IMG/VR virus record: IMGVR_UViG_2811995254_000001
Span: 1 to 64,000 of that record
Direction: 5' to 3' (one strand)
From: a virus
Taxonomy: Duplodnaviria; Caudoviricetes
DNA: 64,000 nt
Shown here: positions 1-63,360 of the stretch, piece after piece
Layout of the letters: every line of letters starts with the position of its first letter
Numbering within the stretch: position 1 is the first letter of the stretch
The notes under the pieces: model-generated
The model's database searches: none
What the model was told of the DNA's origin: nothing
Seen by the model: the letters and a program-made list of their open reading frames with translations, nothing else
Made by a program: the position numbers and the translations under genes

Positions 1-402
1 ATGTTTAATGCTCGTGTTTTAAAAGAAGAAGATTACCTAGAATTAGTTTCTTGGTGGACTTGGTGGAGATTCCCCTCTCCTTTGCAGGAACTATTGCCTA
101 ACAATGGAACATGCAGAATTATGCTTTCAAAAGAAGGTATTAATATCAGTGCAGGATTCATATACCATACTAATTCAAAAATGTGTTGGATTGAGTTTGT
201 TGTGTCGAATCCAGACTACCGCGAATCAGACAGAAAAGAAGCATTATTAGCTTTAATAAATGAACTTGGAGAAATAGCTAAAAGCCAAGGTTACAAAGTA
301 GCTTATACCAATCTTAAAAACGCTTCTTTAATCAATCACTTTTCAGATTGTCAATATGTTAAAGGTTCTGTCCAAACAATAGAGATTGTTAAGATATTGT
401 AA
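1..402 (+). CDS. GNAT-like phage protein (copy of prophage gene 41174-41575)
   Basis: 133-aa ORF nearly identical to 41174-41575; GNAT-like pattern (WIEFVVSNPDYR...A...Gy). Confidence 0.75.
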   Translation: MFNARVLKEEDYLELVSWWTWWRFPSPLQELLPNNGTCRIMLSKEGINISAGFIYHTNSKMCWIEFVVSNPDYRESDRKEALLALINELGEIAKSQGYKVAYTNLKNASLINHFSDCQYVKGSVQTIEIVKIL

Positions 403-408
403 TAAAAA

Positions 409-432
409 ACCCCTTTTACAAATAAAAGGGGT
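409..432. terminator. Intrinsic terminator between convergent genes
   Basis: ACCCCTTTTA-caaa-TAAAAGGGGT hairpin. Confidence 0.7.
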
Positions 433-438
433 AAGGGG

Positions 439-1098
439 TTATAGAAAAATAATTTCTTGTATCTCTAAAGTAGGGTTAGCACTAGAAGGAAGCTGTAAAA
501 AAGTTTCTCTAATATTAAAGGATTGACTTACTGAAATGTCATGGTATGTATGGATATGATCTAGACCTTTTGCTATTAAATAATCTACTCCATTAGTTGG
601 TGTAGATCCTTGATTGGCAACTTTAAATCCTCTGAACATAGCACGTGGGCCAAGTGAACTAGGTAGTTGAGGAACTTCATTACATTTAACTGTTTTATAT
701 GAAGACACAGGGTACTGATATGTAGGAATACTCCACTGAACATCAGAAGTAGGTAAATAAGGAAACAATGGTGGTAGAGGACCACCACCAGGATGCAGCG
801 GCTCTGGATTACGTATCATTGTATATTTACTTGATGGAGCAGGACAATAATTAAATTCATTTATATCAGTAGGATGAAAATTACTAAATGTAATAAATTC
901 ACCAGGTTTTAATTGAATATAATGACCGACAACAACATGAAGATATCGTCCTGGGTTTATAGTTGGGTCAGAAAATGTCATCTCTAGTGCATAAAGATTT
1001 TTAATAACAGTAGAAGAATTTCGTATAGTTAATATTCTAGTTGCAAAACTTGTACTAGTGAATGCAAGAACAAATAATAGTGTTATAATTTTTTTCAT
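439..1098 (-). CDS. Secreted Pro-rich hypothetical protein (cargo, unit 1)
   Basis: Signal peptide MKKIITLLFVLAFTSTSFA; paralog of 2901-3539. Confidence 0.85.
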   Translation of the reverse strand: MKKIITLLFVLAFTSTSFATRILTIRNSSTVIKNLYALEMTFSDPTINPGRYLHVVVGHYIQLKPGEFITFSNFHPTDINEFNYCPAPSSKYTMIRNPEPLHPGGGPLPPLFPYLPTSDVQWSIPTYQYPVSSYKTVKCNEVPQLPSSLGPRAMFRGFKVANQGSTPTNGVDYLIAKGLDHIHTYHDISVSQSFNIRETFLQLPSSANPTLEIQEIIFL

Positions 1099-1103
1099 AG
1101 CTG

Positions 1104-1448
1104 TTAACTGTTTGTTATTTCTAAATATTTTGTTAATGCGTAGGTCATGATATCTTCTTGTGTGGTATATCCTCCCATGCTATACTCTCCTATAGAAAGT
1201 AAAAATGCCACAGCAGTATTAAAGCTTTCGGTAGAGTATAAAAATTGCTTGATATCAATTCTACCATGAATAAAGTCTATATAAAGTTTATCAAAGTCTT
1301 TGTATTCTGTACTCTGTCTTATACTAGAATTTGTATTCAATTCAGTTTTATTATGGCTATCATTTAGATTACCAATATTTTCAGGTTCATTACTACAACT
1401 AATAGTAAAAAACGCGCATCCTATGGCTAGGAATAAGATTTTTTTCAT
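1104..1448 (-). CDS. Lipoprotein (cargo, unit 1)
   Basis: Lipobox TISC-SNE; paralog of 3545-3889. Confidence 0.85.
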   Translation of the reverse strand: MKKILFLAIGCAFFTISCSNEPENIGNLNDSHNKTELNTNSSIRQSTEYKDFDKLYIDFIHGRIDIKQFLYSTESFNTAVAFLLSIGEYSMGGYTTQEDIMTYALTKYLEITNS

Positions 1449-1599
1449 AATAAATAATTTTAAAGTTGGTTTGTTAAATATAACAAATGTTAATTTAACT
1501 TAAAAAAAACAAATATAATAATTAACATTAAATACACTTTAACTATACTATATCAAAAAAATACCTAACAACTATTCTCACATTATATATTTCAGAAAT

Positions 1600-2025
1600 A
1601 AACAACCCCTAAAAGAAAGTTTTGAAGTAAGACAACATCAACCACCAAATGGTTTAAACCCTGATGAAATAGACAAATGGGATAATAATTATGATGACTT
1701 TTCGTATGATGAAGGGAAAAATAGAATAATGAAGTATTTTAAAGGAACATTTAAACCAACAAAAAGAATAATTAAACAAAAAGCATCTTTTTTTAAACAA
1801 CTAAATACAATTGAAGAGATATTTATTTCTGGGCATTCAATGTCGAAGGTAGATCTTCCTTATTTTAAGGAATTAGATAAACATATAAACACTCATGTTA
1901 AATGGACAGTGTCATATTATAATAATGAAGAATATAACAGACATGAAGAAACACTTAATAGTATGGGGATATCAAGTACTACTATAAATTTTGTTAAACT
2001 TGATTATTTAAAAATAAACAATTAA
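1600..2025 (+). pseudogene. 5'-truncated AbiH-like (SIR2-like) abortive infection gene fragment
   Basis: GHSMSKVDLPYFKEL...KWTVSYY motif; reading frame stays open upstream of the called ATG (1729) to about 1600. Confidence 0.65.
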
Positions 2026-2071
2026 GTTTATTTACACCTTAGATAAAAAACATTTGACAAGATAAATTCTT

Positions 2072-2355
2072 CTAATTTTTCCAAACCCAAAGCACTTTCA
2101 CTGTTTTGGGTTTTTCTTTTTTCATTCAGCTTTTCAATAATTTATGCCTTAATCAAATCGCTTTTAGAAGCTTCTTTTGGATTATATAATTCAACTGGTA
2201 ATCTACTCTCCCGACAGCATTTCGCGCATTTCTTAGCAAATTTGACATGCTTTTGCAGTCATAGTATAAAGATGCTCATTTTTATTTTCATCTTTAGCAG
2301 CACCCGATATATATCCCATTCGAATTAAGCGATCTACGTTCTAATAGGTATATTG
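2072..2355 (-). pseudogene. 3' fragment of a homolog of prophage gene 15311-15889
   Basis: CCCAAAGCACTTTCACTGTTTTGGG and TTAATCAAATCGCTTTTAGAAGCTTCTTTTG shared with 15325-15597. Confidence 0.9.
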
Positions 2356-2357
2356 TA

Positions 2358-2467
2358 GATGGAGGAGAAATATATCGTATTATACAGATATAGAAATAAT
2401 AAATAATGATGATAAGCCAATTGAATTATTTGCTATTAACTCCAATATCGTAAAAAGTTATGTTTAA
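2358..2467 (+). pseudogene. 3' fragment of a homolog of prophage tail gene 40462-41181
   Basis: GATGGAGGAGAAATA...GAATTATTTGCTATTAA...AAAAAGTTATGTTTAA matches 41071-41181. Confidence 0.9.
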
Positions 2468-2861
2468 TGCTCGTGTTTTAAAAGAAGAAGATTACCTAGA
2501 ATTAGTTTCTTGGTGGACTTGGTGGAGATTCTCCCCTTCTTTGCAGGAACTATTGCCTAACAATGGAACCTGTGGAATTATGCTCTCAAAAGAAGGTATT
2601 ACTATCTGTACAAGATTCATATATTATACTAATTCAAAAATGTATTGGATTGAGTTTGTTGTGTCGAATCCAAACTATCGCGAATCGGATAGAAAAGAAG
2701 CTTTAGTTTCGCTTATCAATGAACTTGGAGAAATAGCAAAAGTACAAGATTACAAAGTACCTTATACTAATCTAAAAAATACTTCTTTAATCAATCACTT
2801 TTCAGATTGTCAATATATTAAAGGCTCAACACATACTACAGAAATGATTAAAGTGCTATAA
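2460..2861 (+). CDS. GNAT-like phage protein, copy 2
   Basis: Full-length 133-aa copy. Confidence 0.7.
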   Translation: MFNARVLKEEDYLELVSWWTWWRFSPSLQELLPNNGTCGIMLSKEGITICTRFIYYTNSKMYWIEFVVSNPNYRESDRKEALVSLINELGEIAKVQDYKVPYTNLKNTSLINHFSDCQYIKGSTHTTEMIKVL

Positions 2862-2862
2862 T

Positions 2863-2897
2863 AAAAAAACCTTTCTAAAGTTTAGAAAGGTTTTTTT
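2863..2897. terminator. Bidirectional intrinsic terminator
   Basis: AAAAAAACCTTTCTAAA-g-TTTAGAAAGGTTTTTTT palindrome. Confidence 0.8.
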
Positions 2898-2900
2898 ACA

Positions 2901-3539
2901 TTATTGAAATATAATTTCATGTGATTCTACAATTCCGGGGTTAGGAAGACTTGGCATTCTAAAATATTTTTCTTTGATATTATGTGGTGTATGTACATAA
3001 CCATCAATAAATACAGGTTCAAAATAATCTATTGCGTGAATATTGCCGTTAACGGGGTCTTTTTCACAAATTTTAAATCCTCTAAATTCTAATCGATTAC
3101 CCAATGTTGCAGGTAGTGGTGGTACAACGTCACAATTCTCTGAAATATATGGATTGTAATCTTCATCAGGATTGTATGGATCATATATATAATTTATCCA
3201 TCTAAACGCATAAGTATCAGGAGGGATGATAGGAATAGGAGGGTCTGGATATTCAGAATGAATAACTTTATGAGTACTATCTGAAGATGGACAGAATTCA
3301 AAACCATTTATGCCAGATTGAATATAACTAAACGTAATAAAATCTCCAGGCTCTAATACAATATAGTCTAATATCGACCTATATGTATGGTAGATTGTTG
3401 TTTGGACTGAATCGTATTGCATCTCTAATGCAAAAAAATATTTAGTTTCGTTAGATAGATTTCTTATTGTTAAAACTCTACCTGCAAAAGTTGTGGTAGT
3501 GAATGCTAAAAGGAATATAAGTAGTGTTATTTTTTTCAT
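2901..3539 (-). CDS. Secreted hypothetical protein (cargo, unit 2)
   Basis: Signal peptide; shares LTIRN, LEM, PG.FITFS, FRGFK and EIIF blocks with 439-1098. Confidence 0.85.
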   Translation of the reverse strand: MKKITLLIFLLAFTTTTFAGRVLTIRNLSNETKYFFALEMQYDSVQTTIYHTYRSILDYIVLEPGDFITFSYIQSGINGFEFCPSSDSTHKVIHSEYPDPPIPIIPPDTYAFRWINYIYDPYNPDEDYNPYISENCDVVPPLPATLGNRLEFRGFKICEKDPVNGNIHAIDYFEPVFIDGYVHTPHNIKEKYFRMPSLPNPGIVESHEIIFQ

Positions 3540-3544
3540 AGCGA

Positions 3545-3889
3545 TTAACTGTTTTTGATTTCGAAATATTTTGTCAAAGCATAGGCCATAATTTCTTCTT
3601 GAGTTGTATATCCACCGAAACTGTATTCACCAATAGACAGCAAAAAAGTTACAGCAATATCAAAGCTATCATTAGAATACAAAAACTGCTTAATATCAAT
3701 TATCTCATAAATATAGTCCATATAGAGTTTATCGATTGCCTTATATTCATCGCTCTCTTTTATAACTGAATAATCAGCTAACTCAGTTTTATTATGGCTA
3801 TCATTTAGATTACCAATGTTTTCTGGTTCATTACTGCAACTAACAGTCAAAAACGCACATCCTATAGCTAGGAAGAAGATTTTTTTCAT
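3545..3889 (-). CDS. Lipoprotein (cargo, unit 2)
   Basis: Lipobox TVSC-SNE. Confidence 0.85.
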   Translation of the reverse strand: MKKIFFLAIGCAFLTVSCSNEPENIGNLNDSHNKTELADYSVIKESDEYKAIDKLYMDYIYEIIDIKQFLYSNDSFDIAVTFLLSIGEYSFGGYTTQEEIMAYALTKYFEIKNS

Positions 3890-4044
3890 AATATATAATT
3901 TAAAAATTGGTTAGTCTAAATATACATAATGTTAATTTAACGTAAATAAACAAATAGAACTAATTAACATTTAATACACTTTAACTATACTATATCAAAA
4001 AAACATACTTAACAAATGCTCTCGCACTACATATCTCAGAAATA

Positions 4045-4468
4045 AACAACCCCCAAAGAAAGTTTTGAAGTAAGACGACATCAACCACCAAATGGTTTAA
4101 ATCCTGATGAAATAGACAAATGATATAATAATTATGATGACTTTTCATATGATGAAGGGCAAAATAGAATAATGAAGTATTTTAAAGGAACATTTAAACC
4201 ACCAAAAAGAATAATTAAACAAAAAGCATCTTTTTTTAAACAACTAAATACAATTGAAGAGATATTTATTTTTGGACATTCACTGTCAAAAGCAGATCTT
4301 CCTTATTTTAAGGAATTAGATAAACATATAAACACTCATGTTAAATGGACAGTGTCATATTATAATAATGAAGAATATAACAGACATGAAGAAACACTTA
4401 ATAGTATGGGAATATCAAGTACTGCTATAAATTTTGTTAAACTTGATAATTTAAAAATAAACAATTAA
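4045..4468 (+). pseudogene. AbiH-like fragment, copy 2
   Basis: GHSLSKADLPYF motif; in-frame TGA upstream at ~4121. Confidence 0.6.
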
Positions 4469-4514
4469 GTTTATTTACACCTTAGATAAAAAACATTTGA
4501 CAAGATGAATTCTT

Positions 4515-4907
4515 CTAATTTTTCCAAACCCAAAGCACTTTCACTGTTTTGGGTTTTTCTTTTTTATTCAGCTTTTCAATAATTTATGCCTTAATCAAAT
4601 CGCTTTTAGAAGCTTCTTTTGGATTATATAATTCAACTGGTAATCTACTCTCCCGACAGCATTTCGCGCATTTCTTAGCAAATTTGACATGCTTTTGCAG
4701 TCATGGTATAAAGATGCTCATTTTTATTTTCAACTTTAGCTGCACGCGATATATATCCCATTCGAATTAAACAATCCACGTTCTAATAGGTATATCGTAG
4801 ATAGAGGAGAAATATATGGTATTATACAGATAGAAACGATAAATAATGATGATAAGCAAGTTGAATTATTTGCTATTAACTCCAATATCATAAAAAGTTA
4901 TGTTTAA
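4515..4907. pseudogene. Second copy of the fused 15311-15889 / 40462-41181 gene fragments
   Basis: Matches 2072-2467. Confidence 0.85.
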
Positions 4908-5336: not shown

Positions 5337-5358
5337 GATATTTGTAGTGATAATATAT

Positions 5359-5709
5359 CTAATTATCTGAAGGTATGGATGGTTCTATTATAAGGCAGTT
5401 TGATATATTTGAAATATTATATCCATGTAATGACATGTATCCGTTGCCATTCTGATCAATATCTGTTGGATATAATTGATACAACTCCTGAGATCTTTGG
5501 TAAGCCCCTGCTTCTGTATATCTACCATATTCAACATAGCTTGTTGTATACTTTGTAGGATTGTTATTTATCCATTGAGTTCTATGAACTTCAAATTTAT
5601 AACAAGCTTTTATTGGCTGAATAATTTGATCATCTTTAATAATTTCGCCTGAATTAGCAAATGTTCCTAATGACATCGTCAATGCTAATCCTAATAATAA
5701 TTTCTTCAT
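5359..5709 (-). CDS. Small secreted protein (cargo, unit 3)
   Basis: Signal peptide MKKLLLGLALTMSLGTFA, shared start with 41620-41946; two Cys. Confidence 0.85.
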   Translation of the reverse strand: MKKLLLGLALTMSLGTFANSGEIIKDDQIIQPIKACYKFEVHRTQWINNNPTKYTTSYVEYGRYTEAGAYQRSQELYQLYPTDIDQNGNGYMSLHGYNISNISNCLIIEPSIPSDN

Positions 5710-6279
5710 AATAAATAATTTTAAAATTGGTTAGTCTAAATATACGTAATGTTAATTTAACCTAAATATACAAGCGGAACTAATTAACATTTAATACACT
5801 TTAACTACACTATATCTAAAAAAACATACCTAACAACTACTCTCATACTACATATCTAATTTAACTAGATAGAACATCCAAATCTAAAACAATTCAATAT
5901 AGTCCATAAAGCCTTTATGCGGCATTATTACAGCTATACTACATACTACACTATTATAATGACAGTAGGGCCGATACCTCTACTGGGTCTTTTCATTCTA
6001 AAATCAAATACTTTAGAATGATGTATAGGGGAGTTAGAGATAAAGCATTCTTTCTCTTTAGATTGACTAAACTTTTTACCTAAGAAAATATAAATGCAAT
6101 AGGGTGTATAGGATGCGACCCTTCTCCTTCCTTCGTCAGGATGACAAAAATGGAAGAGATTTTTTTATTCTTCAGGACATACGAATCGGAAAAGCTTACT
6201 TAAAAAAAACACTCTTTTTTATGCTATCCCCAAGTTTTGTACTTGATCCGAAATCTACAATTTGGCTTAATTGTATAAA

Positions 6280-8354: not shown

Positions 8355-8550
8355 GAGATTATTATTTTAATAGGGTTATTTAATATTTGTGGTAACGGCT
8401 TGCATAGTGGTAATTATCAAGCCTGATTCGCTTAGTTATAATTTAAGAACTACAACCAAGACTCAAGAGAGAGAGCAGACAGTAAGTCAAAGAACACCCC
8501 TAGGGGGGAATCAAAAAAAAGAAGTATTACTTCCTTTCTTTTATGTTATA

Positions 8551-8558
8551 CAAATGTA
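8551..8558 (-). promoter_or_regulatory. Bacteroidetes -7 promoter element for the leftward small-gene operon
   Basis: TACATTTG on the minus strand matches TAnnTTTG. Confidence 0.5.
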
Positions 8559-8898
8559 TAACAACTATTTTATATAAAAAAGCATTAATTAAAAAGTTTT
8601 GATACGTAATTTCTATAGTAAAACACAATGCAATAGATAATCGTTATAGTTATTGATTTCCCTTTGTTTTAAAGGCTTTAATTAAAGTTTACGCATACAA
8701 TGTTAGAAGAGGATAAATAATTGAACTGTGGTAAAATTTAATAGGTAATGAATCGTATTGACATGAATGAAGGGTGATGAAAAAACAAACACAAACGCGC
8801 TGTCGTGTAGATCTCTTTTATTGTTTACATACATTAAAGAATAAATACACACAATTCTGTATCTTAGCACGGAGAAAAAGTACATAAATCTGTATATT

Positions 8899-11588: not shown

Positions 11589-12287
11589 ATGCGTGTACTA
11601 GGTAGTGATTCAAGTGTAGCTTTTTCATTGAATTATATTAGATGTGCTTGTGATATAGTTATGAGTCCTATTAATTATTTTCAATTAATTAAAAACGGTT
11701 TTAGACCAAAGGAATTCATATACAACAATAAAGTAAAAATTTTAATTGAATTAAGTCAAATGGATGATGTTGACAATATTAGTTCTAATATAGAAGATAA
11801 GCAAAATGTAACAAATATTTGGTTTCATTTTGATAATGAATCGAAATTTGACGATTTAGTAAAATTTACAGATGGAGCTGTATTCAAGGATTCTATTGGA
11901 TACTGCCTTAGATATGGAAATAAGATTGGATATTTTAATATTGGTGATTATATAGGAAAAAGAGAAGATGGATCTCTACTTGTTCTATGTGCTCAGTTTA
12001 GATCAAATATAAATGAAGTAGGCATTTTTCCCATTATGCACGTACAAATTCCTGAAATTAAATGTCACTCTTTTATAAAAGAACATTGGATAAATAAATT
12101 TGATTATTTCCCTGATCTTTTAAACAAACCAAAACGAATCCGCACTCAAGATGAATTAGACAACGAACGTTTAACTGAAATTGTTGACGCGATTGTACGT
12201 TATAGAAAATCAGAAATGGCTGTTCCTACTGAATGGATTCAAGAATACAATACGATAATTGAAAGAATTAAAAATAACACTAAATAA
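11589..12287 (+). CDS. Hypothetical phage protein
   Basis: 232-aa ORF in operon. Confidence 0.7.
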   Translation: MRVLGSDSSVAFSLNYIRCACDIVMSPINYFQLIKNGFRPKEFIYNNKVKILIELSQMDDVDNISSNIEDKQNVTNIWFHFDNESKFDDLVKFTDGAVFKDSIGYCLRYGNKIGYFNIGDYIGKREDGSLLVLCAQFRSNINEVGIFPIMHVQIPEIKCHSFIKEHWINKFDYFPDLLNKPKRIRTQDELDNERLTEIVDAIVRYRKSEMAVPTEWIQEYNTIIERIKNNTK

Positions 12288-12294
12288 AATTGCT

Positions 12295-12708
12295 ATGTCA
12301 GATTTTAAAACACGTTTAGAAAACGAAGTAAAAGAAGAAACAGAAAAGTTAGGTAAATTAAAAGCGTTTCTTGAAAGCGAAAAAGTAAAAGAATTGGATA
12401 ATGAAATGCAATGCTTGATGTGTGAACAGTATCATTATCAAAAAGGATATGTGAAGGTAATTAAGAAGCGATTAGATATCCTCGAAGACAAGGCTCAATC
12501 AGGTACCGAAACTCTTGGTATGAAACGTGTAGGATTGAAATTTAATCCTTCTGGACATGTAAATGTTCATGTTGCAAAAACCATTCAAGCCGATTTTATT
12601 GATTTTGCAGAGTTTTTAAAATCACATGGTGTCGATCAAAGATGTGCTTCTATTGCGCAAACTGAAGCAGAAACAGCAGCAATGTATTTAGTAAAATCCA
12701 ATTTCTAG
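12295..12708 (+). CDS. crAss001_48-like domain fused to an Acb2/Tad1-like helical-hairpin domain
   Basis: N-half FKTRLENE...KLKAFL...Q...Y..V.KKRL; C-half RVGLKFNPSG...R.ASIAQTEAETAAMYLVKS. Confidence 0.6.
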   Translation: MSDFKTRLENEVKEETEKLGKLKAFLESEKVKELDNEMQCLMCEQYHYQKGYVKVIKKRLDILEDKAQSGTETLGMKRVGLKFNPSGHVNVHVAKTIQADFIDFAEFLKSHGVDQRCASIAQTEAETAAMYLVKSNF

Positions 12709-54990: not shown

Positions 54991-56046
54991 TTATTTAGTC
55001 TCTTTGTTATAGTATAGAAGATAATAATACATCTGTCTTTCTTCATCCCATCCACGCTCAATAAATTTATCCGCGCTTTCAGGATTCACAAAATCAAGTT
55101 TGATTGTGATGTTTGTATCCAGGTTGATCACATTTTTAAATTTCTTGCGCGCTTCGGTTACAGCCTTGTTTGAAATTGGAAAGGAGCTAACATCTTCGAT
55201 ACTGTACTTCTCCCCTTTGTCTACTTTGTAGTTTTTGAACTCGGAAATTAGGTCGGGGTTATCGAGTACTTCGTTTAAGAAATTCGTTTCTTCGAAATCA
55301 TCGTTCTTTGCGAAGTAATCTACTGAGCGATTCAAAAACATTACTTCTTCTTTTTTATCTTCAGCCGGAAGGACCACTTCTTTCGCGAAGTCTTGGCAGA
55401 ATTTCAAATACTTTTTGGTGTGGAAGTTTTCATCTTCAAAAATATCTAGTCCAAGGAAGTGTTCTAACCAATAACGCGCATCGTAACGATTGCTGTCGAT
55501 TGTCAAGATTTTGTAACCTTCTTCTTTTTTGTAATTGAAGATTAGAACTCCTTTATCCAGCTTGCCTAGGTTTACCCCCTGCTCTAGTCGCATCTTTAGG
55601 TTTGATTCTTCCTTGTCGAATTGGATAAAATCAGTTTTGATTTCACTTTTAAAGATACCGATTGCATCAACTATATTGTTGTCGATTGATACATTGGTTA
55701 GGTAAGTAACATAAAGCTCTCCACTTTTGATATGAGGGTGTCCAGATTGATCATAAAGATGGCGAGCGATTTCTTTTGATTTATCATGAGCCGAATTAGG
55801 ATTTTGGAAAATGCTCGTTGCGATATTATACATGGTGTGAAATTCTAAATCAACATCATGTTCAAATCGGAAATAGTCTTCGTCTTTCTCTCGGAACGGT
55901 TTAAAGAAATACTCTTTAAGTAAAGGCGCGATTTCGTCTGTTAATGTATAAGGGTTCTCAGTTAAGAAAACGTCCTCGTTTCTTGCTTTGTTGTTTACTT
56001 GGTGTACAGATAATGTTTCAATCTGCGTGTTGAATAAATTAATCAT
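54991..56046 (-). CDS. Nucleoid-associated protein (YejK/NA37-like)
   Basis: HPHIKSGELYV, AIGIFKSE, KLDKGVLIFN, YWLEHFL. Confidence 0.85.
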   Translation of the reverse strand: MINLFNTQIETLSVHQVNNKARNEDVFLTENPYTLTDEIAPLLKEYFFKPFREKDEDYFRFEHDVDLEFHTMYNIATSIFQNPNSAHDKSKEIARHLYDQSGHPHIKSGELYVTYLTNVSIDNNIVDAIGIFKSEIKTDFIQFDKEESNLKMRLEQGVNLGKLDKGVLIFNYKKEEGYKILTIDSNRYDARYWLEHFLGLDIFEDENFHTKKYLKFCQDFAKEVVLPAEDKKEEVMFLNRSVDYFAKNDDFEETNFLNEVLDNPDLISEFKNYKVDKGEKYSIEDVSSFPISNKAVTEARKKFKNVINLDTNITIKLDFVNPESADKFIERGWDEERQMYYYLLYYNKETK

Positions 56047-60885: not shown

Positions 60886-61320
60886 CTAAAAAGGGAGGTT
60901 ATCGTTATCGTCTTCCTCGTATTGTGATGTTGGAGGAAATTGATTACCTGGTGCAGGTTGGCTTTGTTGATTTTGTTTCCATTGTTGATGAGCATCTGCT
61001 GCCGAACCTTGGCCGTGGTAAGTGCCGTCTTGCATTTGTGGTTGGTTTACAGCTGCAGTAATTTTCCAAGCTTGAATCGTATTGAAGTATCTTACTTCGC
61101 CTTGTGGTGAAGTCCAACTTCGTCCTTTAAGATTTAAGTCTACCTTTACGTAAGTTCCGACTTGGAATCCGTCTAGTAAATTCACTCTATCTTGCGTCAC
61201 TTCGATTAGAATGTCTTGTGGGTATGTTTCGTCAGTAGTGATAACAAACTCTCGTTTTTTAAAAGAAGAGCTAATATCTTGAGTGCTTCCTATTAGTTTT
61301 ATACGTCCTTGTATGTCCAT
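60886..61320 (-). CDS. DUF3127-family SSB-like protein
   Basis: FKKREFVI...YPQ...LKGRSW...YFNTIQAWKI; acidic DDNDNLPF tail. Confidence 0.9.
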   Translation of the reverse strand: MDIQGRIKLIGSTQDISSSFKKREFVITTDETYPQDILIEVTQDRVNLLDGFQVGTYVKVDLNLKGRSWTSPQGEVRYFNTIQAWKITAAVNQPQMQDGTYHGQGSAADAHQQWKQNQQSQPAPGNQFPPTSQYEEDDNDNLPF

Positions 61321-61322
61321 GG

Positions 61323-61490
61323 TTAAATATTTGGTGGTGAGATTGTTTGCCCATTTTCGTTATAATGAACACACTTATACCATTCGTTTTTTAGTTTCTC
61401 ATACTCTTTTGATTTATGATCATTCCAACCATAAATACTAGCTTCTTTTTTAAGAGTTTCTATTTCTTTTTTAATCGTTTCTTTACTCAT
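61323..61490 (-). CDS. Small hypothetical protein (55 aa, not in ORF track)
   Basis: MSKETIKKEIETLKKEASIYGW...PPNI. Confidence 0.55.
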   Translation of the reverse strand: MSKETIKKEIETLKKEASIYGWNDHKSKEYEKLKNEWYKCVHYNENGQTISPPNI

Positions 61491-61646
61491 ATTATTTTGC
61501 CGATTCCTACAATCGGGAAGTTTTACTTATTATATTTACACTATACTTAACAATAAGTACTTTTAAGTATTATTTTAACTATAATTAAATTATTTATCTC
61601 AATAAAATCAGTAACTTTATTATCATAAAAACAGGTTTCAACAAAA

Positions 61647-61985
61647 GAAAGCAAGCACAGTCTGTTTTTCATAATACAATTTTCAATCTAAATTTTATTT
61701 TATTGCTACTAGGGCTGTGCTTTGCTTTCATATAAAACATGAAAGAGGGTATAGGGACTTTTCTGCATCAATAAAAACAAAATGTTTTTATAAAAGTGGG
61801 GACTTCATTGCAGATTTTTAAACATATACAACCTAGACCTCTTTCTACTATTTTAAAGGAAAGGAGTAGAAAATTTATTAAGTAGTCGATTGTGTATTAA
61901 ATTAATTAGGTGTAGATTCAGTCACAATGATTACAATCAATGGTAGTTTTAAATAACATTACAAAAATTAATTAATACTCCTTTC
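61647..61985 (+). ncRNA. Three tandem stem-loop units, each GAAAG...CTTTC
   Basis: Long-range stems at 61647-61729, 61741-61845 and 61859-61985. Confidence 0.5.
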
Positions 61986-62006
61986 TCTTTTTCATCTTCC
62001 ATCATC

Positions 62007-62402
62007 CTATAATTTTTCAATATCTACATCCCAAATACCTAGTTTGCCTTTTACATTTAGAATCGGTTTTTCATAAAAAACAGCATCTTTTAAAACCCAA
62101 TGCCAAATGCCTTGGCCTTTATCTGCCCAAATTGATTTGTGGTTTTGAACACAATCTACAATGGTAACTTCGCCGATAATTGCTGAATTTTTAAATTGAA
62201 ACTCGTCAATATTATCTGTGACTTCTTCTCTTTCTTTTGAAAGTCGATCGCTCTTATCTGGATGCATTGACGCATGTATGTAAACACGTCCTCTGAATCT
62301 AGTTCGCCAAGTTCTGTTCTCAATGTCCTTAACCCCTAGGCAGATTAACTCTGCCCAAGGTTGCTTAACGGATAGTGCTTTAGTTATTTCTTTGCCAGCC
62401 AT
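62007..62402 (-). CDS. ASCH domain protein
   Basis: ALSVKQPWA...GVKDIENRTW...RGRVYIHAS. Confidence 0.92.
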   Translation of the reverse strand: MAGKEITKALSVKQPWAELICLGVKDIENRTWRTRFRGRVYIHASMHPDKSDRLSKEREEVTDNIDEFQFKNSAIIGEVTIVDCVQNHKSIWADKGQGIWHWVLKDAVFYEKPILNVKGKLGIWDVDIEKL

Positions 62403-63360
62403 CTGCGATTTGTTTTAGGGTTTCACGTTCTTTATTTACAAGCCATTCACGAGCCATTGTAACTCGTCTAGTCATGTGTTTGATGTCTTCTTCTGTAAGG
62501 GTTACATTGAATGATTTAAGACGCATATGTGGAGGTATTGAAAAGTCTTGAATCGGGTTGTAGAAGTCGTAACCAGGATATTCTTTTTTAAACTTCGATA
62601 CGTCAAAAATCATGTTTCGCTCTAGTTGAGCAACTTTATAACGAAATTCTTCGTCTGTGTCGTCAGGTTGTCCCATTTGAAACCACATTCTTCTCTTTTC
62701 ATCTTCAATTAGATGAAGAGGAGCGTTAACTAAACAATACACAAGTTCAGATTCTGTTTTGGTTTCTAATTCAGGTAAGTCATAGCTATGAACAATCCAC
62801 ATATAACCTTTCAATTGCCATTCGTACAATGTTTTTAGTTCTGCGTTGTCAAATGATTCTAAGTCCCAATTGGTCTTAGTATCTTTAGTCTTCTTTTGAA
62901 GATTATCTGGGGTTCCTTGGATAAAATCATTACTTAGATGTTCATCGTTCTTTCGGTAGAAAAACTCATCGCGTTGAGATTTTAAATCGAGAGCATCCTC
63001 TTCACAGATTGTTCCCTTGCTTAGGTATTTGTTTTCAAGGAATCTTCTACGTTTCCAAAATAAATGGCGAAACACTTCTTCTAAGTGGGTAATTGCGCCT
63101 GTCGGAAGTTTATCTTTAGGCTCTATTCTTTTGACAATGTTTTGGAGTTGTTCTAATTCCTTTTCTTTAGTATCATCCCATTTATTAGGCCTATTTGTCT
63201 CAGGATTCTTTCCTGTTCTTTTAATATCAAGTAGTGTTTGTATTCTTACACTGTCTTCTTCTGTTGCTTCTCTTAAGGGTTCTGGAAGGTTTGTCAATAA
63301 CTTTCCAAGTGAAGAACATCTTTCTTTCCAATTGGTGAATATTAGGTTTTCTGTTTGCAT
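62380..63360 (-). CDS. YqaJ/lambda-exonuclease-like recombination nuclease
   Basis: RCSSLG, KGTICE, GTPD...DTK, YEWQLKGYM. Confidence 0.8.
   Translation of the reverse strand: MQTENLIFTNWKERCSSLGKLLTNLPEPLREATEEDSVRIQTLLDIKRTGKNPETNRPNKWDDTKEKELEQLQNIVKRIEPKDKLPTGAITHLEEVFRHLFWKRRRFLENKYLSKGTICEEDALDLKSQRDEFFYRKNDEHLSNDFIQGTPDNLQKKTKDTKTNWDLESFDNAELKTLYEWQLKGYMWIVHSYDLPELETKTESELVYCLVNAPLHLIEDEKRRMWFQMGQPDDTDEEFRYKVAQLERNMIFDVSKFKKEYPGYDFYNPIQDFSIPPHMRLKSFNVTLTEEDIKHMTRRVTMAREWLVNKERETLKQIADGWQRNN

Follow-up and report, generated by a model that had tools for sequence, protein, structure and literature searches.

Three tandem stem-loop units with a common helix base in an exchangeable non-coding cassette of a Flavobacteriaceae provirus

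A 516-nt non-coding gap (61491-62006) in the window, that is, the whole 64,000-nt stretch analysed here (positions 1 to 64,000 of IMG/VR record IMGVR_UViG_2811995254_000001), contains three tandem stem-loops, units A, B and C, each of which begins with GAAAG and ends with CTTTC. The three-unit observation is real, lies beyond chance and is statistically strong. The array belongs to no described family and is for the present best filed as phage-borne structured non-coding cargo. Tentatively, we read it as the payload of a moron-like non-coding cassette that gives one three-domain RNA or three small RNAs, a reading that we consider possible and prefer to those weighed against it below.

Architecture and folding of the array

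Unit A (61647-61729, plus strand, 83 nt) is closed by a 16-bp helix between GAAAGCAAGCACAGTC and GGCTGTGCTTTGCTTTC, with one bulged T and one G-U pair, around a 50-nt loop. The 11-nt linker ATATAAAACAT (61730-61740), which together with the adjoining arms makes up the palindrome CTTTCAT-N7-ATGAAAG, leads to unit B (61741-61845, plus strand, 105 nt). The helix of unit B consists of 8 bp between GAAAGAGG and CCTCTTTC plus 4 bp between TAGG and CCTA, and its structured 76-nt interior includes two GGGACTT repeats 45 nt apart. After the 13-nt linker TACTATTTTAAAG (61846-61858) follows unit C (61859-61985, plus strand, 127 nt), closed by a 10-bp helix of GAAAGGAGTA and TACTCCTTTC that is extendable by AAAG/CTTT, with a structured interior of 107 nt. 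Arms, coordinates, unit lengths and linker lengths all agree with the preliminary description of this sequence, which had also claimed, correctly, that the stems differ except for the common terminal 5 bp and that the loops are unrelated (pairwise local-alignment z –0.43 to 0.85). Since the units have no likeness beyond their 5-bp termini, simple duplication does not explain them. GAAAG and CTTTC each occur three times in the gap, every time at a helix end, and 76 and 124 times in total in the 64 kb. On each strand the array is flanked by a helix and then a U-rich tail: TCTTTTTCAT (61986-61995, plus strand) stands directly 3' of helix C, placed like a terminator and 11 nt short of the ASCH stop codon, and TTTTGTTG (61639-61646, minus strand) directly 3' of helix A. 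This arrangement counts in favour of an RNA payload.

When the gap was folded, the MFE and centroid structures of either strand retained the three closing helices, with units A, B and C as three separate domains and a pairing probability of 0.89-1.0 for the outer six pairs of each helix. The stability of the single units was compared with 200 dinucleotide shuffles per unit. The plus-strand folds reached –24.3 kcal/mol (z –5.06) for unit A, –26.3 kcal/mol (z –3.96) for unit B and –25.2 kcal/mol (z –3.83) for unit C, and the minus-strand folds –19.0 (z –3.29), –21.6 (z –3.11) and –18.1 kcal/mol (z –2.09), respectively. All three units are clearly more stable than their shuffled controls, none of which matched the plus-strand fold of any unit (0/200). 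In a comparison of 16 window gaps between 150 and 600 nt long, on both strands and with 20 shuffles each (two longer gaps being left out), the lowest z of the 32 strand-gaps (–4.45) fell on the plus strand of the 61491-62006 gap. The second-best folding gap of the window is located at 8355-8702 on the minus strand (z –4.15, 20 shuffles).

The combination of termini and stems is also rare. GAAAG..CTTTC units with a perfect stem of at least 8 bp occur three times in the 64-kb window, all in this array, and those found in other loci comprise six in copies of the same cassette (L010, L089) and two unrelated ones, in L045 (within an ORF) and L046. A scan of 136 phage sequences totalling 785,508 bp, with duplicate copies of this locus left out, returned this triple and one AAAAA pair as the tandem arrays with a common terminal 5-mer. 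Plain long-range perfect 8-bp stems are frequent (2185 in 687,312 bp), so that units B and C alone would be unremarkable.

The plus strand folds all three units 5-7 kcal/mol better than the minus strand, with lower z. A G-U pair had been taken earlier as favouring the plus strand; such a pair is present in unit A, but G-U counts separate the two strands poorly (2 versus 2 in unit A, 0 versus 1 in unit B and 5 versus 2 in unit C). Units A and B are stable as single-stranded DNA too (z –3.66 and –4.27). The plus-strand preference is modest, and the helices form also on the minus strand and as DNA; both points weigh against an RNA payload.

Genomic setting and exchange of the cassette

The record is a 75.8-kb Flavobacteriaceae provirus with a tyrosine integrase at its right end (domains Arm-DNA-bind_5 and SAM_5). 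A long minus-strand early operon is headed by a Rha/ANT antirepressor gene, a Cro/CI-type HTH gene and an HTH_17 gene, and includes, in this order, a gene for a BspA-type leucine-rich-repeat (LRR) protein, an exonuclease gene (62380-63360), an ASCH-domain gene (62007-62402, minus strand; Pfam ASCH 1.2e-4, phrog_3193 2.9e-43), the gap, a 55-aa ORF (61323-61490, minus strand), a DUF3127 SSB gene (60886-61320) and further replication-region genes. Relatives of the exonuclease are found in Flavobacterium genomes and one Flavobacteriaceae MAG. The LRR protein (541 aa, 63366 to ~64991, minus strand; L118 367-1992) is unusual cargo for an early operon. The early region ends with the gene for a 37-kDa nucleoid-associated protein, NA37 (1.4e-55; 54991-56046, minus strand). 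Elsewhere in the window, a 149-aa protein (12259-12708, plus strand) has matches to crAss001_48 (9.8e-17) and to the Acb2/Tad1 hairpin domain (4.1e-7), and is a candidate sponge for the cyclic nucleotides of defence signalling.

The whole array is contained in an exchangeable cassette of 493-494 nt (61526-62019), bordered on the left by a leader hairpin and on the right by the ASCH gene. In a contig from an RNA library (X16), position 61525 is joined to 62019 across 622 other letters that replace 61526-62018. In L009, whose ASCH is 91% identical, similarity ends at 62020 and resumes at 61533, and the slot is filled with ~1.9 kb of small same-strand ORFs. In L010, the cassette gap is 516/516 identical, yet the flanks are 88.8% identical, and the DNA contigs of runs X3, X4 and X5 show zero differences over the units. 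Relatives that do without the cassette altogether are L009, L108 and the X16 contig. Its complete identity in L010 despite diverged flanks, together with its replacement elsewhere, indicates that the cassette moves as a block. It is known as one sequence version only; every copy being identical, there is no covariation signal, which weighs against an RNA payload.

The slots of relatives L108, L012 and L063 hold cargo with its own signals, a finding in favour of the cassette carrying a payload. In L108, a Flavobacteriaceae MAG, an antisense 132-aa ORF with a signal-peptide-like N-terminus (5406-5804, locus minus strand) lies in the same slot and resembles a protein moron in the position that the hairpin units have in the window; a two-way terminator hairpin at 5340-5365 adjoins the ASCH gene of this locus. 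The antisense slot ORFs of L012 and L063 are HTH-regulator-like by eye only. The structured gaps of two further relatives, L033 and L067, have an architecture unlike the three units. In L033, the non-coding gap downstream of ASCH (3872-4571) has ~29-bp inverted repeats around ~380 nt (z about –5), and this repeat-bounded gap may be an inverton or a MITE.

The leader at the left border (61500-61524, minus strand) consists of AAAACTTC and the hairpin CCGATT-GTAGG-AATCGG; the ATG of the 55-aa ORF follows 9 nt downstream. The leader is present as one copy in the window, and it recurs upstream of small genes in metagenomes and in genomes of Myroides, Paenimyroides and Flavobacterium, some loci having two copies. 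A scan matched 7 viral, 9 metagenome and 5 genome loci, and in at least 12 of the 16 loci examined the leader was directly before a gene; none of these 16 leader-bearing loci contains a homologue of units A-C. Two copies each are seen in L009 (4276-4300 and 4886-4915) and L126 (615 and 938), and further examples in L113, L116, L119, L121-L125, L127, L128 and L130-L132. In its general form, AAAACTTC is combined with a hairpin of 5-6 bp whose loop reads GTAGN/TTAGG, and the ATG of a small early gene of a Flavobacteriaceae phage or prophage follows after 5-9 nt; in one of the L009 copies the stem is doubly compensated (CACTT..AAGTG). The shape of the leader hairpin recalls a boxB-type hairpin. 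Like the PeSL promoter/stem-loop cassettes of T4-type phages (PMC2839356, PMC4122927), the leader hairpin (and not units A-C) is a short conserved intergenic motif before small hyperplastic-region genes, and it marks module-exchange joints; it differs from them in sequence, phage group and its Bacteroidota host, and a promoter role of the leader is putative.

Homologue searches, coding potential and expression signals

Over the window, only two tRNAs reached the gathering threshold in Rfam 15, and a tRNA check ruled out the units as tRNAs. At E-values up to 10 in the region 61300-62100, the best matches of the units were MIR156 with 16 bits (threshold 62) and Ysr35 with 10 bits (threshold 428). 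The units belong to no Rfam 15 family, including self-cleaving ribozymes, Y RNA/YrlA, CRISPR repeats and Flavo-1. Distant-mode searches of the INPHARED phages gave zero matches, flanking genes included. Among 80 ASCH loci and 12 SSB loci only the same cassette was recovered, and relatives of the 55-aa ORF were limited to 2 loci, one of which has the same cassette. A 20-mer search of IMG/VR found the units only in the same cassette, with no homologue beyond one IMG/VR record. An 18-mer of unit B had 5 matches in genome contigs, all due to chance. In 401 Flavobacteriaceae genomes, 25 had short AT-rich matches at E ≤ 1e-3, none of them across a unit, and in 401 Flavobacterium genomes there was one match at E ≤ 1e-5, 46 nt long (802 genomes in total, with 2 candidates per genome scored in both searches). 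The 75.8-kb provirus contains no further unit copies. That neither an Rfam family nor a homologue in these collections matches the units counts against an RNA payload.

ORFs of at least 20 aa in the cassette are 23-41 aa long, among them overlapping 23-aa and 41-aa mini-ORFs on the operon strand; the largest, of 41 aa, has no homologue. The cassette thus has no supported ORF, a point in favour of an RNA payload. A type I toxin–antitoxin system was rejected, as on reading these 23-41-aa ORFs have no hydrophobic stretch of transmembrane length. Retron and DGR non-coding RNAs were rejected for want of an adjacent reverse transcriptase; RVT_1 had no match in the 75.8-kb provirus and was positive in control genomes. 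A CRISPR or type III antitoxin-like array was likewise dismissed, there being no direct-repeat family across the units, whose pairwise similarity is at chance level. SD-like 4-mers precede 1 of 88 provirus ORFs versus 8.3% of random windows. Being rarer than background before ORFs, such motifs do not make GAAAGGAG and GAAAGAGG ribosome sites.

The loops had been proposed to act as antisense guides, on the grounds that loop A contains TTTTTCATAAT, which we located at 61665-61675, and that this stretch is complementary to a start region such as that of the cargo lipoproteins. The complementarity holds over 12 contiguous AU-rich bases, but its context is generic and can be read either way. The start motif ATTATGAAAAA is seen 4 times in the window versus 0.51 expected: at the starts of two paralogous 114-aa lipoprotein ORFs, inside one large ORF and on the minus strand of loop A. 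There, the ATTATGAAAAA stretch resembles ordinary Flavobacteriaceae gene starts and begins the 41-aa ORF, itself unsupported, whose ATG overlaps the stop codon of the 23-aa ORF. Nothing else of note emerged as a complement in the provirus, the longest runs on both strands being 15-17 nt with G-U pairs included and no shuffle control, and the BLAST E-values 0.118 or worse. The guide-loop idea is weak, with one generic 12-nt match behind it. The lipoprotein ORFs lie in a part of the window (1-4468) where ORF sizes of 133, 219/212, 114 and 98 aa are repeated, which suggests a tandem duplication of ~2.4 kb; each copy has a 114-aa lipoprotein ORF starting with ATTATGAAAAA and a 98-aa ORF whose match to AbiH is confined to the C-terminal end of that protein.

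An AT-rich segment of 121 nt (61526-61646, 16.5% GC) separates the leader hairpin from unit A and is a candidate site of divergent promoters. An inverted repeat in this segment (61543-61570, ATACTTAA-N12-TTAAGTAT), centred on AAGTACTT, has an operator-like shape. The –7 box consensus of Flavobacterium sigma-A is TAnnTTTG (PMC9723704). The cassette has no canonical TAnnTTTG box on either strand, which speaks against an RNA payload; near-consensus TAnnTTTA boxes are found on the plus strand at 61531, 61558 and 61612, with one more on the minus strand. A scan for Rho-independent terminators, confined to loops of 3-8 nt, found no site in 61491-62006. Helices A-C enclose interiors of 50-107 nt, unusual for intrinsic terminators, and this too tells against an RNA payload. 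Intrinsic terminators were also rejected as an identity for the units: U-tracts are present, but the interiors measure 50-107 nt, versus loops of 3-8 nt in the compact, GC-rich hairpins of terminators. None of the RNA-library runs contains this cassette; the sole run with related sequence, X16, has a different cassette and gives no cover over units A-C, which likewise weighs against an RNA payload.

Possible roles of the array

In the reading that we prefer, a protein-free accessory cassette would have been dropped into a hyperplastic slot of the early operon of a Flavobacteriaceae prophage. Its product could be a single transcript of ~340-380 nt with three independent domains, or three small RNAs cut in the AU-rich linkers, and a processing or binding factor would recognise the shared GAAAG:CUUUC helix base. 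The sense strand is more likely the plus strand, antisense to the early operon. Plus-strand transcription might then start in the 121-nt AT-rich segment and end at helix C and the U-tract before the ASCH stop codon, while helix A with its U-tract would stop or pause the incoming minus-strand early transcript, so that transcription would be convergent. Transcription, the strand used, processing and any target of the array are all things that we infer. The processed guide array of the preliminary description is neither supported nor refuted by the present data.

Small RNAs in moron positions of E. coli prophages include DicF, IsrK and AgvB/AsxR. The cassette resembles these in being non-coding cargo between phage genes, dispensable to the backbone, variable among related prophages and potentially expressed from the prophage. 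Known prophage sRNAs are compact molecules made up of a seed plus a small terminator hairpin, with demonstrated transcripts and chaperones, whereas the array consists of three large end-paired domains and belongs to no family. The host phylum is not known to have Hfq or ProQ, the classical sRNA chaperones. The Pas sRNAs are also reported to be small RNAs encoded by prophages (bioRxiv 10.64898/2026.05.13.724894).

The minus strand carries genes on both sides of the array, and the units might instead act in cis on that strand, as structured elements between cistrons of the polycistronic early mRNA, an explanation that we regard as rather unlikely. They would be processing stalks, 3' stabilisers of the exonuclease–ASCH message, or a block (helix A with UUUUGUUG) at which transcription ends or pauses and which uncouples the upstream genes from the 55-aa ORF, the SSB gene and the replication genes, which would be restarted from the AT-rich segment and the leader hairpin. 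The three helices do form on the minus strand (probability at least 0.89, z –2.1 to –3.3), where a U-tract follows helix A, and in L108 the corresponding position after ASCH is occupied by a terminator hairpin and the next gene is again preceded by the leader. However, the plus strand gives the better folds for all three units, the terminator scan finds no site at the array, three differing large hairpins in tandem exceed what a terminator or stabiliser needs, and relatives do without the units. RNase III hairpins between the early-mRNA genes of phage T7 and the processing stalks of rRNA are cut at the helix base, which frees the enclosed RNA. The units resemble these in being irregular helices formed by sequences that flank a segment of a polycistronic transcript, but T7 sites are single and compact, whereas the units are in tandem with non-coding sequence between, and two of their helices have only 8-10 bp. 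It is unlikely that the cassette has no present function. It would then be filler left by cargo exchange, for instance remnants of small genes, promoters or terminators, and its hairpins would not yet have been lost in so young a sequence. An orphan cassette known in identical copies only, in a slot that relatives fill with unrelated DNA, would fit this, as would the overlapping 23-aa and 41-aa mini-ORFs on the operon strand and the likeness of the loop A minus strand to a generic Flavobacteriaceae gene start and promoter region. Against it stand the 16-bp helix and the triple of shared termini, which are far beyond chance, the rank of the gap as the best-folding one of the window, and the consideration that decay would erode such helices and not create them.

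It is quite unlikely that the units are DNA-level palindromes, that is, MITE-like insertions or attC-type hairpin recombination sites captured successively, with the GAAAG..CTTTC ends as the recognition site of a transposase or recombinase. Unrelated units with only inverted 5-bp ends in common do suggest a mechanism that acts on ends; the slot of the cassette is prone to recombination, units A and B are also stable as single-stranded DNA, and attC sites and MITEs share sizes like the 83-127 bp of the units, conserved outer ends and a variable centre. However, the 75.8-kb provirus, the 802 sampled genomes and IMG/VR, the cassette itself apart, contain no other unit copy, and the flanks (CAACAAAA/ATATAAAAC, AAAACAT/TACTATT and TTTAAAG/TCTCTTT) show no target-site duplications. 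The provirus lacks a reverse transcriptase and a serine recombinase, the terminal tyrosine integrase being the only recombinase seen, and for inversion the loops, with 50-107 bp, are short. The orientation is identical in G000, L010 and the X3-X5 contigs, and no inverted orientation appears in the three DNA runs and two records, which are represented by contigs only, and contigs drop rare variants. Integron attC sites are imperfect palindromes of ~57-141 nt, conserved only at their outer ends, with extrahelical bases, and they occur in arrays. The units are likewise imperfect palindromes in an array, with conserved ends and a variable centre, but they have no gene cassettes between them and no integron integrase nearby. 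As an integron attC array they were rejected, since the termini GAAAG/CTTTC do not fit the attC core consensus and the terminal phage integrase is the only recombinase seen. MITEs such as Correia and ERIC are multi-copy units of ~100 bp with terminal inverted repeats, long RNA hairpins and target duplications. The units share the size of ~100 bp, the terminal inverted repeats and the long hairpins, but they are single-copy in the provirus, IMG/VR and the 802 genomes searched (in the host chromosome they may be multi-copy), their arms differ and there are no duplications.

An RNA payload in a moron-like cassette remains the reading that we prefer. A more specific proposal, which we hold to be improbable, is a phage RNA array in which the shared helix base, with its purine-rich 5' arm and pyrimidine-rich 3' arm, marks units for excision or binding by one factor. 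The unrelated interiors of 50-107 nt would then be exchangeable payloads (decoys, sponges or antisense guides), and such an array would invert the logic of CRISPR, with conserved closing stems and variable loops that are acquired unit by unit in a hyperplastic slot.

Hardly any regulatory or anti-defence RNA is known from phages of Bacteroidota, and a non-random, non-coding cassette at a place where relatives carry protein morons is a cheap test case for RNA cargo. If nothing is transcribed, the array shows how far structure statistics alone can mislead in AT-rich phage DNA. If the helix base is a processing or recognition signal, it provides a searchable signature for more arrays.
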